A stretch of 64,000 bases of DNA from an uncultured Actinomycetota bacterium (GCA_963823915.1 CAWGNJ010000002.1:79192-143191), one strand, 5' to 3'. Shown: positions 34,825 to 51,577, counted from the first letter of the stretch. Numbers and translations are program-made. The notes: a model not told the origin generated them from the sequence alone.

Positions 34825-36252
34825 CTATCCCTTGACGACTCCGAGGGGGCGTAGGCGAGCCACCTTGTTGGCCAGACCGGCCCGAGCGCAGGCGTCGACG
34901 ACCTCGTCGACATCCTTGTAGGCGTAGGGCGCTTCCTCCGAAAGCAGTTTGACCGAACCGGGCCGCACGGAGATGCCACCTGCCTCCAGGGCCCGCCGCA
35001 CTTCGTACCCGGTTTCCTCCTGCTTGGCCTTCTTGCGGCTCATCAAGCGGCCCGCGCCGTGGGCCGCGGTCGCAAAGGCCGGGTTGCCTTCGACACCGAC
35101 CAACACCCAGGATGCCGTTCCCATGCTGCCCGGAATCAGTACCGGTTGCCCGACTGGTCGCAGGTCTGCCGGAAGGTCGAGATGACCCGGACCAAAGGCA
35201 CGAGTGGCACCCTTGCGGTGCACACAAAGGCGCCGGTCTTGACCGTCGACTTCGTGGGTCTCGATCTTGGCCAGGTTGTGGGCGACGTCGTAGACGAGTT
35301 GCATTCCTGTCTGTTCGGGTGACATCCCAAAGGCCGCGGCGAATGCTTGACGAGCTTCGTGGGCCAGGACGTGGCGGTTGGCCCAGGCGAAGTTGGCCGC
35401 GGCGGCCATGGCTCCCAGGTAGCGCTGCCCCTCTGCCGACTCAACCGGAACCGAGGCAAGTTGTCTATCCGGCACTTCGATCCCGTACTTCTGCATGGCG
35501 GCCCCCATCAGCTTCAACTCGTCGGTGCAAGTCTGGTGACCAAGACCACGACTCCCGCAGTGAATCATCACGCACACCATCCCCTCAGCGAGACCGAAGG
35601 CGCGGGCGGATTCTTCGTCGTGAATGGAATCCACCACCTGGACCTCGAGAAAGTGGTTGCCGGCGCCCAAAGACCCCAACTGCCCGGCGCCTCTTTGCAG
35701 GGCTCGTGCCCCAATGTGGCCGGGTTGCGCTCCCGCAGAGGTCCCGTTCTCCTCGCACCGATCGAGATCCGACTCCCAGCCGTAACCGGCCGCCAGCACT
35801 GCCCGCGCACCGTCGCTGAGCACCTGACGCAAGAGACCCGCGTCGGCTATCGAACCCTTGCCCAGTCCGCGCGGGATGCGACCGTCGAGTTCGTTCATCA
35901 CCTCAGTGCGCCGGTTGTTGAAATCTCCCTCGTCAAAGCTGGATGCCAGCAACCGGACTCCGCAGCAGATATCGAATCCGACCCCGCCGGGTGAGACCAC
36001 TCCACCGGCATCAACGTCGGTAGCCGCTACCCCACCAATCGGGAATCCGTATCCCCAGTGGATGTCGGGCATGGCCATCGAAGCTTCGATGATCCCCGGC
36101 AGGTGGGCGACGTTTTCAACTTGCATCACCGCCCGGTCCTCTTCGGCCTTCAGCAGAAGCGGCTCGGAAGCGAATATGCGTCCGGGGACTCGCATGCCCT
36201 TGTGACGGGGGATCTCCCAGACGCATTCGGCAATCCGGTGCAGGTTCATCAA
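34825..36252 (-). CDS. rtcB: RNA-splicing ligase RtcB
   Basis: Intact 475 aa. [42 protein letters not shown]. Confidence 0.9.
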
Positions 36253-36274
36253 TCCAACTGTACGTCAGAGGTTG

Positions 36275-36414
36275 GCTTCAGGTTTCAGGTTTCAGGTTTC
36301 AGGTTGCAGGTTTCAAGTTGCACGCACGAGCAGCAAGCAACAAGAACCAGCAGGTTTCGGGTCTCAGGTTTCAGGTTTCAGGCAGGAGCACGAGGAACGA
36401 GGAACGAGATACTG
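36275..36414. repeat. mosaic of 7-bp repeat blocks, 20 heptads (GTTTCAG-type dominant)
   Basis: gcttcag gtttcag x3 gttgcag gtttcaa gttgcac / gcacgag cagcaag caacaag / aggtttc gggtctc aggtttc aggtttc / agcacga ggaacga ggaacga. Confidence 0.95.
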
Positions 36415-36425
36415 CTCCCCAACGC

Positions 36426-36455
36426 AAGAAGGCCGGCCCACGGGCCGGCCTTCTT
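36426..36455 (-). terminator. 13-bp stem hairpin downstream of mscL
   Basis: aagaaggccggcc-cacg-ggccggccttctt. Confidence 0.65.
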
Positions 36456-36474
36456 GTTGATCGACGAGGTTTGC

Positions 36475-36852
36475 CTAGCGCTTCAGGGAGTCGCGGATCT
36501 CGGTGAGGAGCACAATGTCCTCGGCCGGGGCCGGAGCCTCTTCCTCACCAGAAGCCTGACGAGCCTTGATAACCTCATAGGGCTTCACAACAAAGAAGAA
36601 CACCGCAAAGGCAATCATCAGGAATACCACAATGGCCTGGATGAACGCCCCGAACTTGATCTGCGAATCGTTGATCTCCAGGATCATCACCTGATTGAAG
36701 TTCGGCTCGCCGAAGATGATGCCCACGATCGGCATGAGAACCTCAGTAACTAATGCACCGATCACAGCCACAAATGCCAGAGCCATCACCAAACCGACGG
36801 CGATCTCGATCAGATTGCCCTTGAGGGCAAAGTCCTTAAATTCCTTGAGCAC
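36475..36852 (-). CDS. mscL: large-conductance mechanosensitive channel MscL
   Basis: LKEFKDFALKGNLIEIAVGLVMALAF. GTG 36852 with GGGAAGGGAGAG upstream is preferred over the longer ORF. Confidence 0.9.
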   Translation of the reverse strand: MLKEFKDFALKGNLIEIAVGLVMALAFVAVIGALVTEVLMPIVGIIFGEPNFNQVMILEINDSQIKFGAFIQAIVVFLMIAFAVFFFVVKPYEVIKARQASGEEEAPAPAEDIVLLTEIRDSLKR

Positions 36853-36975
36853 AAGCTCTCCCTTCCCATACCCGGATTTTCCAGGGACCAAAGTAACAGG
36901 TGTGGAAAGCCCACGATTCGAGCCCCTTCACCGGGGTTTTGACCCCACCGGTTGGCAGAAGTTCCGCGCCGACTC

Positions 36976-37392
36976 TCAAACGTCAAAAACCACCCGGGCC
37001 GACCATCCGTGCGGCGTCTCTTCGATCGAGAGTTGGTGATAGGTGACGGCCTTGATGGGAGGCCCGGATAGCTCCAACCCTGCCGACGCCAGACCACCAA
37101 CCGAGCCCAGCAACCGACAATCGTCGAGTACCTCGATTTCGAAGGAACAAAAGGCCAGGTCGCGGGTCTCCGCCTCAAACAGCAGCGTGCTCAACCAGTC
37201 GACCAGCAGGTCCTCGACGTTGGCCGCCTCAACCTCGATCCGGACCCGTTCACTCTCGACCAGATCGCCGATGCCAAACATCAGATCAACCATGGCGAAA
37301 GCGCCATTCTCGAAGACCTCCCTGAGGGTGGCACCGAACACGATGATTCCCGTGTCGGCGGTATGGGAGAGAACTTCGTACCGGGGCGCCAT
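36976..37392 (-). CDS. archease
   Basis: YEVLSHTADTGIIVFG..FENGAFAM..IKAVTYHQLSIE is the archease pattern. Start at MAPRYEV. Confidence 0.8.
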   Translation of the reverse strand: MAPRYEVLSHTADTGIIVFGATLREVFENGAFAMVDLMFGIGDLVESERVRIEVEAANVEDLLVDWLSTLLFEAETRDLAFCSFEIEVLDDCRLLGSVGGLASAGLELSGPPIKAVTYHQLSIEETPHGWSARVVFDV

Positions 37393-37517
37393 GGCGACAT
37401 TGTGCCATCCATCCAGTCCGGTTCCGGCGTGACTTGCCTGCCATATGGGCAGGTTTCTCACGCAAGTATGGGAAGACCGCTAAGTCGCTCGGCTTGGCGT
37501 TCCGATAATCAACTGCA

Positions 37518-38987
37518 ATGGACAACACCAACGATCTGGCGGTGCTGCTCGCCTCTCAGTACCCGCTCCTCCTCGTAGAAGCGCAGGAGGAAGAGCGCCT
37601 GCTCGGAATCATCCGCGAAGCAGCCCACCGGCTCGACCTGCCCGTGTGGACGTGGTCGGCCACCCGCGGTCTGGCCAAGGACGGTCATCATGCTCAGTAC
37701 CAAACCGTCGATCCGCATGTCGCCCTGGAATTCGTCGGAGAGCTGTCGGGCCCCGGCGTCTTCGTCTTCGCCGACGTCCATCCGCTCCTCAACGATGCCC
37801 TGGTCATCCGCCGGATCAAGGAAATCGCCCAGGGGGCTCGACGAGGTCAGACCCTGGTTCTCACCGGTCCTCGAAACGAAGTTCCGCCCGAGATCGAGAG
37901 CCTCGCCCATCAGTGGTCGCTCAAACCGCCCGATCGAGAAGAGTTGCACGCCCTGGTGAGCCGGACACTCGAAACCTTCGTTTCTCGCTCTTTCCCGGTG
38001 GTCGTAAATGCCACCGAGATTGAGCAGATAGTCGACGCCCTCCTCGGCCTCACCATCACCGAAGCCGAACGCCTCGTGCAGCGGGAGGCGTTACGTGATG
38101 GTCAGATATCTCCGGCCGATATCCCGGCACTTCGGACCGCCAAGGCGGAGCTGCTCAATTCCGACGGAATCCTCGAGCTGGTCGAAGCGGATGTCGGCAC
38201 CCTCGACACGATCGGTGGGCTCAACGGCCTCAAGTCGTGGTTGCGGCTGCGGCGACGGGTAATGATCTCCGACGATGCCATGCCCGGCCTCGACCCACCG
38301 AGAGGCGTCCTGCTCACCGGTGTGCCCGGTTGCGGCAAGTCGTTGATCGCCAAGACCCTGGCTCACACCTGGGGACTCCCCTTGGTGCTGCTGGATCCTT
38401 CCCGGCTCTACAGCAAGTACATCGGCGAATCCGAGCAACGACTGACCGCCGCGCTCGCCACGGTGGAAGCGATGGCCCCCGCCGTCCTGTGGATCGATGA
38501 GATCGAAAAGGGCCTGGCGTCATCTGGTGACGGCGACGGCGGAGTCAGCCGGCGAATTCTTGGCACCTTCCTGCGCTGGATGCAGGAGCGCAGCGGCGAT
38601 GTCTTCATGGTGGCGACCGCCAATGATGTCTCATCGCTCCCCCCCGAATTGCTCCGGCGGGGCCGATTCGACGAGATCTTCTTCGTGGACCTGCCCGGAA
38701 CCGACGAGCGAGCCGAAATCTTGGCCATCCATCTCGGCCAAACGAGGGTGGGATCCCGGCCAGTTTGCGATCTGCGGATCTGGTGGCCTCATCCGAGGGG
38801 TTCTCGGGAGCCGAACTGGAGACGGTGGTGGTCGGTGCGCTCTACCGGGCGCTCGCCGACGAGGACGACCTCAGCACCGACAGCCTCATGAAGGAACTGG
38901 CGGCAACCGTGCCACTCTCCGTGTCCCGTCGGGAAGACGTGGCCGTCGCTGCGAGCCTGGGCCGACGGTCGAGCAGTGTTCGCCTAA
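37518..38987 (+). CDS. single-domain AAA+ ATPase (Ycf46-like architecture), frame-interrupted
   Basis: About 230-aa N-domain, then GVLLTGVPGCGKS, VLWIDEIEK, RRGRFDEIFFVDLP. Breaks near 38745 and 38942. The repaired end reads REDVAALRAWADGRAVFA-stop (38985-38987). Confidence 0.8.
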
Positions 38988-43365: not shown

Positions 43366-43373
43366 CGGCTCGA

Positions 43374-43408
43374 GTCATCAGTCGTCAGTCATCAGTCATC
43401 AGTTGTCG
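43374..43408. repeat. 7-bp tandem-repeat block, 5 units (gtcatca gtcgtca gtcatca gtcatca gttgtcg)
   Basis: Reverse complement of the 5747 motif (TGAYGAC). Directly after the clpB stop. Confidence 0.9.
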
Positions 43409-45074: not shown

Positions 45075-45095
45075 AGTTTGAAGTTTGAAGTTGTT
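45075..45095. repeat. 7-bp repeat block (agtttga agtttga agttgtt)
   Basis: Left arm of the 45072-45162 palindromic arrangement. Confidence 0.8.
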
Positions 45096-45117
45096 GATCC
45101 CCTCTCCGGAGGGGATC
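45096..45117. terminator. hairpin between convergent SPFH and M20 genes
   Basis: gatcccctc-tccg-gaggggatc. A second hairpin, gcgaagc-aag-gcttcgc, lies at 45161-45177. Confidence 0.6.
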
Positions 45118-45130
45118 ACTCTTTGCTCCA

Positions 45131-45160
45131 CTTCCGACTTCCAACTTCCAACTTCCAACT
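45131..45160. repeat. 7-bp repeat block (cttccga cttccaa x3)
   Basis: Right arm. Its reverse complement (ttggaag) is one base different from the left-arm unit (tttgaag). Confidence 0.85.
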
Positions 45161-46321: not shown

Positions 46322-46399
46322 GATTTCCTCGTTCTCATAGTTCGGCCGTTAGGCCGGTTCACGGTACCAGGCAGTCGGGGGCCCGACTGCGTGGGCCGC

Positions 46400-46427
46400 G
46401 TATCTCGTACTTCGTATCTCGTGCTCC
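46400..46427. repeat. 7-bp repeat block (gtatctc gtacttc gtatctc gtgctcc)
   Basis: Read directly. Upstream of the M20 gene start. Confidence 0.75.
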
Positions 46428-51549: not shown

Positions 51550-51577
51550 GTCCGCGGTTCGCAGTCCGCAGTCCGAA
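51550..51577. repeat. 7-bp repeat block (gtccgcg gttcgca gtccgca gtccgaa)
   Basis: Lies between the dxs stop (51615) and the terminator hairpin at 51521-51543. Confidence 0.75.

Follow-up and report, generated by a model that had tools for sequence, protein, structure and literature searches.

The spacer between mscL and rtcB in the genome studied here is largely filled by tandem 7-nt units (heptads), and the original prediction held that this array occupies the place where the promoter and 5' UTR of rtcB should be. What kind of sequence is the array, how did it come to lie between these two genes, and does rtcB need it? We approach these questions through the anatomy of the array, the same junction in congeneric genomes, and the heptads of the whole genome.

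Genome and gene annotation

The source genome (G000), from an uncultured soil actinobacterium, is a 2.32-Mb bin of 6 contigs with 62% GC and about 53% completeness, and its RtcB relatives are uncultured Acidimicrobiia throughout. The window, i.e. the whole stretch of 64,000 nucleotides that was analysed, is G000:C2:79192-143191; positions given below without a contig name are counted from its first letter. The comparison covers the genomes of the genus, G000 to G009. Genes in G000 were called with a codon-usage longest-ORF picker, and the calls account for only 76-79% of the DNA; the class assigned to some spacers is therefore wrong.

The features of the locus are listed in Table 1. The rtcB product matches the Pfam family RtcB (PF01139, E=2e-163) over its full length, and each of the 9 remaining genus genomes has an orthologue at 84-89% identity. 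The stop codon of mscL is 36475-36477. For rtcB, the ATG at 36249 is more likely to be the start than the TTG at 36252. Two other rtcB copies are unusual. In G009 the gene (G009:C18:17368-18792) was matched as three pieces, suggesting frameshifts or assembly errors, and G002 has a second copy (G002:C7:210650-212071) with 72% identity and two TGA codons in frame.

Two plus-strand ORFs of 62 aa each (36272-36460 and 36318-36506) cross the array. They are open because AGGTTTC-type units have no stop codon, and both are repeat artefacts rather than genes. Over-extension of ORFs by stop-free heptad units also affects called ORFs elsewhere in G000.

Table 1. Features of the archease-mscL-rtcB locus, in the direction of transcription (positions in the window).
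Feature	Position	Strand	Remarks
Archease gene (RtcB cofactor gene)	36976..37392	-	Upstream of mscL, same strand; Pfam Archease PF01951, E=3e-34
mscL	36475..36891	-	Pfam MscL PF01741, E=1e-31; ATG 36868 may be start
Hairpin, GC-rich	36425..36456	-	3' of mscL; 14-bp stem, 4-nt loop, no U-tract
Leader, hairpin to array, 16 nt	36409..36424	-	CGTTGGGGAGCAGTAT; unique, single copy in genome; aligns to G001 leader
Block next to the putative terminator	36388..36408	-	CTCGTTC x2 + CTCGTGC; TRF 36390-36408, 2.7 copies, 100% match
Transition, 8 nt	36380..36387	-	TCCTGCCT; in rows of 7
Second GAAACCT block	36352..36379	-	GAAACCT GAAACCT GAGACCC GAAACCT; TRF 36351-36382, 4.6 copies
Degenerate middle, 5 heptad lengths	36317..36351	-	GCTGGTT CTTGTTG CTTGCTG CTCGTGC GTGCAAC; unique in genome
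Block next to the putative promoter	36275..36316	-	GAAACCT x4 perfect + 2 one-mismatch variants; TRF 36277-36319, 6.1 copies, 91% match
Stretch from array to -10 hexamer, 12 nt	36263..36274	-	CAACCTCTGACG; unique, no second copy in genome
TACAGT, inferred -10 hexamer	36257..36262	-	7 nt before ATG
rtcB CDS	34825..36249	-	474 aa from ATG 36249; TTG in frame at 36252

Anatomy of the array

On the minus strand, the sequence from 36408 to 36275 can be set out in rows of 7 as three CTCGTTC units, four GAAACCT units, a degenerate middle of 35 nt and six further GAAACCT units, variants included. The heptad blocks between the hairpin and rtcB amount to about 133 nt, which corresponds to about 19 unit lengths, about 13 of them clean. 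The earlier description, 20 units in 140 bp of pure heptad blocks, was essentially correct in its coordinates and unit readings. Self-identity of the array is 0.58 at lag 7 against 0.16-0.36 at other lags. It is not one continuous array, because the register of its two GAAACCT blocks differs by 2 nt; the shift falls in the degenerate middle, and a related sequence, GTTGTAGCTCG, lies at the corresponding place in G001. The CTCGTTC block is pyrimidine- and T-rich on the sense strand and its unit is common to the G001 array, while the GAAACCT block nearest rtcB is A-rich on the rtcB sense strand, and G001 has that unit in the equivalent position.

The last unit ends at 36275, which is 23 nt before the TTG at 36252, exactly the distance first reported, and 26 nt before the likelier start at ATG 36249. 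By TRF coverage the array is indeed the largest in the window. It is not the largest in the genome, where one of 230 nt occupies C3:604807-605036.

The junction across the genus

The mscL-rtcB junction provides a natural with/without comparison of one promoter-terminator junction. In G002, G003, G005 and G009 the spacer measures 62-65 nt and has no array; its order is the mscL stop, about 22 nt, a hairpin with the core GGCCGGCC, exactly 8 nt, and TACAGT. The array is also absent from G008, whose spacer is 42 nt, and the 120-nt spacer of G007 is free of heptads. In G004 a different sequence lies upstream of rtcB, in which neither an mscL stop nor the hairpin is recognisable. Heptad arrays at this junction were found only in G000, with a spacer of 225 nt, and in G001, with one of 169 nt.

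Both arrays are inserted within the 8-nt gap between hairpin and TACAGT. They have a homologous leader and a common order of a CTCGTTC block, a GAAACCT block and a GTTGYWGCT-like piece; they differ in copy number, and one additional GAAACCT block is found in G000. From several species through G001 to G000, the unit count at the junction is 0, about 6 and about 19, with the hairpin and the -10 hexamer conserved on either side. Since only G000 and G001 carry an array and five congeners do without one, with spacers of 42-65 nt, the array is dispensable for rtcB. The original prediction had spoken against one dedicated cis-regulatory function, and an indispensable role of this kind is indeed contradicted by the five array-free congeners, four of which have the hairpin core 8 nt before a -10-like hexamer. 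It had also named the absence of identical arrays from any related genome as a result that would count against it; what we found is an orthologous array in the congener G001. Exact-protein look-ups of RtcB and MscL gave no strain-level copies of the locus, and two metagenome pattern scans for such copies returned nothing, or an unrelated AT-rich chance match. A continuing change of array length is suggested by the differences between species only.

The comparison also bears on whether the array could have arisen as an artefact, through faulty assembly or sequencing of a long-read metagenome bin. The small number of contigs and the incompleteness of the bin (6 contigs, 53% complete) could raise this suspicion, and repeats are error-prone in long reads. 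However, the independent genome G001 contains the orthologous array with the same units, arrays also occur in the many-contig assemblies G004 and G005, and the class of repeats is well documented in finished genomes (PMC4692102). We therefore consider an artefact extremely improbable.

The hairpin and the putative rtcB promoter

On the minus strand the hairpin reads CAAGAAGGCCGGCC with the loop CGTG, and it begins 19 nt past the mscL stop. It is present as originally described (13-bp stem, 36426-36455), except that the stem has 14 bp when the pair C36425:G36456 is counted. Of 9 genus members, 7 retain its GGCCGGCC core, and covariation of the outer stem pairs is seen among 6 genomes (AAGAA/TTCTT, GAGGA/TTCTC, AAA/TTT, CAG/CTG and GGAG/CTCT), so the hairpin structure itself is selected. 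Of the usual marks of an intrinsic terminator it has the GC-rich stem-loop soon after the stop, with compensatory change, and lacks the U-tract: the stem is followed by CGUUGGGG, and a consensus terminator scan of 36150-37600 found no terminator with a U-tract. The hairpin is most simply taken as a putative mscL terminator despite this absence. In G002, G003, G005 and G009, terminator and promoter fit within about 45 nt, with the hairpin at the -35 position. In G000 and G001 the array moved the hairpin by 100-160 nt from the -10 hexamer and neither element was lost, which argues against the hairpin being a distance-dependent operator of rtcB.

No consensus sigma-70 promoter was found by a promoter scan of 36150-37600. 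A short hexamer, TACAGT, is nevertheless invariant 6-8 nt before the rtcB ATG in all 9 genomes of the genus in which the 5' region of rtcB is available. At the same position, 10 more distant loci of Acidimicrobiia have TACGCT, TACGGT, TAGCCT, TACCCT, TACATT, TAGGCT or TACAGT, i.e. the pattern conserved before rtcB is TANNNT, whose inner bases vary. In the genome as a whole, TANNNT shows a sharp peak 6-8 nt before candidate starts: offsets -12 to -15 have counts of 116, 64, 50 and 41 compared to a background of about 15 each; the four offsets together hold 271 cases against a background of about 60. Leaderless transcription is common in Actinobacteria, and the TANNNT peak indicates that it is widespread in the genus of G000 as well.

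Because the position of TACAGT matches this genome-wide signature, we infer a leaderless promoter for rtcB. Most likely it is a minimal one, with its -10 element at 36257-36262, intact below the array. The rtcB mRNA would then probably have no 5' UTR, and the array, spanning about -18 to -155, would lie outside it. The claim that the array stands in place of the rtcB promoter and 5' UTR does not hold, since the invariant TACAGT survives between the array and the ATG and fits the leaderless signature.

The rtcB promoter could still be modulated by the array, which spans its -35 and upstream zone: a change of unit number would tune or switch the transcription of rtcB, or the units would bind a regulator. 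The array adjoins the inferred -10 hexamer at about 13 nt and places units at the -35 position. Moreover, 28 of the 59 arrays within 60 nt upstream of starts, about half, precede a leaderless-type -10, and of the GAAACCT arrays lying up to 80 nt before starts, 9 of 10 (9:1) in G000 and 5 of 5 (5:0) in G001 have the unit on the sense strand. Precedents for such modulation exist (PMC8262952; bioRxiv 10.1101/2022.06.06.494920). On the other hand, five congeners keep the same TACAGT geometry for rtcB without an array, the units have no good -35 match at usable spacing and no sigma-70-type promoter was found in the scan, and gene 3' ends and convergent spacers, which have no promoter, contain these units too. 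In addition, rtcB, a gene for RNA repair, is atypical as a contingency gene. In our judgement such a modulator is quite unlikely.

Heptads in the genome and the genus

The array far exceeds chance expectation and is part of a class of heptads found throughout the genome. Exact runs of period 7 number 209 in G000 compared to 1-24 for periods 4-6 and 8-12, and 423 of 1493 TRF rows have period 7, merging into 339 islands. There are 67 unit types, the dominant families being CTCGT+NN, GAAAC+NN and AACTG+NN. Intergenic DNA holds 272 of the 339 islands; heptads 'inside genes' are chance matches of 2.1 copies or the ends of over-extended ORFs, and true arrays avoid coding DNA. Per kb of spacer there are 0.96 islands between convergent, 0.48 between tandem and 0.30 between divergent genes, as expected if arrays persist where constraints are fewest. 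Islands lie within 30 nt of a perfect hairpin about 3 times as often as matched random positions.

The density of exact period-7 runs per 100 kb is 22 in G001 (statistics based on 500 kb), 9.0 in G000, 5 in G002, 2.5 in G005, 1 in G003 and in G007, and 0 in the sample of G004. Among the seven genomes sampled over 80 kb or more, G001 and G000 thus have the highest density; from G008 and G009 20 kb each were sampled, with no exact period-7 run. Counting (GAAACCT)3 with at most 1 mismatch gives 124 in G001, 33 in G004, 29 in G000 and 1-2 each in G005 and G008. Among 41 related genomes from the genus, family and order searched, this sequence was found in only 5, all of this genus, and was absent from the other 36. 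The density of exact runs varies more than 20-fold between congeneric species. We cannot account for this simply by relatedness, because the congeners are about equally distant from G000 (76-79% nucleotide identity), nor by assembly type, because G003 (8 contigs) and G007 (about 20 contigs), whose contiguity is about that of G000 and G001, are heptad-poor.

Across the syntenic 64 kb, G000 and G001 have arrays in about 9 common spacers, and about 5 of these blocks have identical units, at a coding-DNA identity of only about 78% between the two genomes. Some spacers of the window are hot spots, with heptads in 3-5 of 7 congeners and differing units: about 43380 (43373-43403), 45075-45160, 46399-46422, about 47040, 51550-51575 and about 10400. 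For example, a TCAG+NNN series is found at about 43380, and TAACTGA itself occurs in G009 at about 45076.

Three features elsewhere in G000 were noted in passing. At C5:222562-223596, a gene-free gap between convergent genes contains 4.8 copies of a 216-bp unit (97% identity), each copy with a GAAACCT-type block flanked by G/C-rich inverted arms, and (ACGAGGA)6 then follows at 223632-223676. An 8.1-kb ORF at C2:387419-395542 has GGTGGTT motifs every 489 bp or so, which suggests a giant protein of tandem domain repeats. At about 360-400 kb of C2 the GC skew changes from about -3% to +7.5%, marking a replication origin or terminus.

The differing contexts of the blocks had led to the suggestion of a mobile or self-propagating sequence type, or of a generic spacer; the array is indeed a generic filler. 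We considered a mobile or copied cassette of the MITE or REP kind, or spread by recombination between loci. Units and occasional neighbour pairs do recur (GGTTTCA followed by ACGAGGA is found at C5:166906 and at the rtcB locus), and the 216-bp higher-order repeat includes a GAAACCT block. However, when the 225-nt spacer is matched across the genome, the matches stop at the heptad blocks; the leader, the middle and the right flank are unique, so that nothing like the full-length copies of MITE or REP elements was found. Neither terminal inverted repeats nor target duplications were seen, and the commonest pair of neighbouring units occurs only 3 times among 71 multi-block islands. The idea of a mobile element is largely refuted by these results and we regard it as very improbable.

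Polarity relative to gene ends

The orientation of the blocks depends on the gene end they adjoin. For confident genes and at least 3 copies, blocks starting within about 25 nt after a stop have T>A on the sense strand in a ratio of 40:11 (p=1e-4). For all blocks within 20 nt from stops the ratio is 61:19, with a composition of 16% A and 31% T, and the stop-side polarity was replicated in G001 (14:3). Before starts the sense strand is A-rich, i.e. the template strand has T>A, in a ratio of 23:8 within 50 nt, a bias that longest-ORF calling could inflate by swallowing stop-free arrays; none of the swallowed 5' arrays had the antisense form. The preference of GAAACCT upstream of starts is mirrored just after stops, where its complement is on the sense strand in 9:1 cases in G000 and 3:0 in G001. 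The rtcB locus follows both halves of the rule, with CTCGTTC adjoining the mscL end and GAAACCT adjoining the rtcB start. The original prediction pointed to the differing contexts of the blocks; the same units do lie at many loci in different gene contexts, but these are not arbitrary, since the polarity rule is obeyed. This polarity is a property of the class that has already been published (Rehm et al., 2015).

Several simple causes of the polarity were rejected. Local base composition does not explain it, as the non-repeat spacer after stops has 18.7-19% A and 17-18.6% T. Replication direction was rejected as well, given 18 leading and 14 lagging GAAACCT arrays under a clear GC skew. A rut-like tract for Rho utilisation was rejected because the sense strand has no C>G bias, the ratio being 76:76 for all tandem-spacer blocks and 36:44 for blocks within 20 nt from stops. 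As a general rule, an insulator of stop codons in all frames fails too: 32% of the units have a stop on the sense strand compared to 31% of random heptamers. Stop-bearing units were sense-only or antisense-only in a ratio of 44:28, which is not significant.

A strand-specific and possibly RNA-level constraint would nevertheless be one way to read the polarity at gene ends. The array may be an RNA element in an archease-mscL-rtcB read-through transcript or in a long mscL 3' UTR, unstructured, and either bound by protein or modulating decay or termination. Read-through is plausible because the hairpin has no U-tract, all three genes run in one direction and are linked in function (archease and RtcB), and the GAAACCU blocks are predicted to be unpaired; the RNA would have U-rich sequence past the hairpin and A-rich sequence ahead of the following start. 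Transcription of most heptamer repeats has been reported for Xanthomonas (PMC4692102). Against an RNA element, no Rfam family matched in the window, the lack of a C>G bias means that the array is not rut-like, and the stop-codon content is no higher than random. The polarity is also mirror-symmetric at gene boundaries, including upstream of promoters, a pattern not expected from a simple sense-RNA model, and most congeners lack the array. We find such an element improbable.

Origin of the array

On balance, we think it probable that the rtcB array is a composite heptanucleotide microsatellite of the LSSR/STRR class that grew in place by slippage, is tolerated, and is not needed for rtcB. Its birthplace would be the unconstrained gap of 8 nt that separates the mscL hairpin from the -10 hexamer of the leaderless rtcB promoter; there it most likely grew in place, and it would keep changing its length in 7-nt steps via slipped-strand mispairing. 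The array would be tolerated because spacing matters to neither neighbour: the hairpin can work anywhere and the promoter needs only its -10 hexamer. At most, the array may act as a passive spacer that has shifted the hairpin by 100-160 nt from the promoter.

The background of such slippage would be a lineage without MutS-type mismatch repair. MutS domain V was not found in any of the 10 genomes of the genus, and NucS is present in 8 of the 10, including the heptad-rich G001, and was not found in G000 (53% complete) or G007. Loss of a repair gene was rejected as the cause of rich versus poor genomes, as MutS is absent from all and NucS occurs in rich and poor alike. According to the summary in PMC4679880, Mrazek et al. 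(2007) suggested that the polymerase slips in steps of 7 nt, and the summaries in PMC4679880 and PMC4692102 state that the preference for period 7 was attributed there to the polymerase footprint.

Slippage alone leaves the period-7 preference and the dominance of CTCGT+NN, GAAAC+NN and AACTG+NN unaccounted for. The strong polarity argues against strict neutrality, and together with the dominance of a few units it implies that some orientation-dependent filter acts on the arrays. The identical units at about 5 of the 9 spacers common to G000 and G001 also count against our preferred explanation. These observations, namely the mirror polarity, the persistence in the same spacers at 76-79% identity and the identical units at about half of the G000/G001 shared spacers, leave room for a different reading, in which heptads are a selected, orientation-dependent punctuation of gene boundaries rather than neutral slippage debris. 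They might, for example, stop transcription or translation leaving or entering a gene, or serve as sites for a strand-specific binding factor. This is rather unlikely in our view; if it were true, the more than 20-fold spread in density could expose the causal polymerase, repair or binding factor and answer the question of why the period is seven.

Comparison with known heptanucleotide repeats

Heptamers of the STRR type were reportedly described in the cyanobacteria Calothrix and Nostoc in 1990. The wider class of heptanucleotide LSSRs goes back to Mrazek, Guo and Shah (2007), as presented in PMC4679880 and PMC4692102. Like these repeats, those of G000 are tandem 7-nt units in several families, with a period-7 excess, a non-coding location and rapid change of length, and their phylogenetic distribution is sporadic, Actinobacteria being among the rich genomes. 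The array at rtcB itself consists of tandem units in non-coding DNA, its genome has the period-7 excess, and the site is kept with changed units. Unlike the known cases, the repeats described here have other units, a new host lineage (an uncultured genus of Acidimicrobiia) and a density spread of more than 20-fold among congeners. The rtcB array thus belongs to the known heptanucleotide LSSR class, with Acidimicrobiia as a new host lineage.

The closest likeness is to the repeats of Rehm et al. (2015), GGGAATC in Xanthomonas and GGGGA(C/T)T in Nostoc PCC 7120 (PMC4692102). These lie on the antisense strand up to 50 bp upstream of ORFs or on the sense strand within 50 bp of the stop, are over-represented where ORFs are aligned or convergent and depleted where they diverge, and fill the same spacers in two species with varying length and sequence (PMC4692102). 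The G000 repeats resemble them in mirror polarity, spacer preference, occupation of the same spacers in relatives, a typical number of about 4 units, and inverted pairs. The difference is one of composition: the Rehm repeats are G-rich, whereas the gene-leaving strand in G000 is T- or pyrimidine-rich, and GAAACCT, CTCGTTC and CTTGYTG have no G-tracts from which a G-quadruplex could form.

TAACTGA direct repeats are found in marine Beggiatoaceae, cyanobacteria and Bacteroidetes (MacGregor, 2015, PMC4679880). They are similar in being sense-oriented, A-rich heptads upstream of start codons, and their AACTGA core also occurs in G000 (AACTGAC with 11 and AACTGAT with 4 exact runs). The rtcB locus, however, uses GAAACCT and CTCGTTC and not the TAACTGA unit. 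Compared with the TAACTGA repeats of 5' UTRs, which lie within a few nt of the start codon, the rtcB array has its units on the sense strand, but its end is 26 nt from the ATG and upstream of the -10 hexamer. A translational role of the TAACTGA type is ruled out at rtcB to the extent that the array is upstream of the inferred leaderless promoter and probably outside the mRNA.

Tandem heptads next to promoters are a further point of comparison. The TTTTGAT heptads of the ctxAB promoter are said to bind a regulator, and the heptamers of recO and recF in Nostoc reportedly do so as well. In the hmw1A and hmw2A promoters of H. influenzae, the copy number of 7-bp repeats measurably sets expression (PMC8262952). 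Like the hmw1A/hmw2A and ctxAB tracts, the rtcB array consists of tandem 7-bp units directly upstream of the core promoter, and the unit number varies between strains or species. Unlike those surface or virulence genes, rtcB encodes a housekeeping-type RNA ligase, and sister species have no tract.

Taken alone, the rtcB locus is nothing unusual within its repeat class, reports on which date from 1990, 2007 and 2015. What the junction adds to these systems is a case in which arrays can be seen to be born in an unconstrained 8-nt gap and to be dispensable, and the more than 20-fold density spread among equally distant species could help to find the driver of 7-nt repeat formation.
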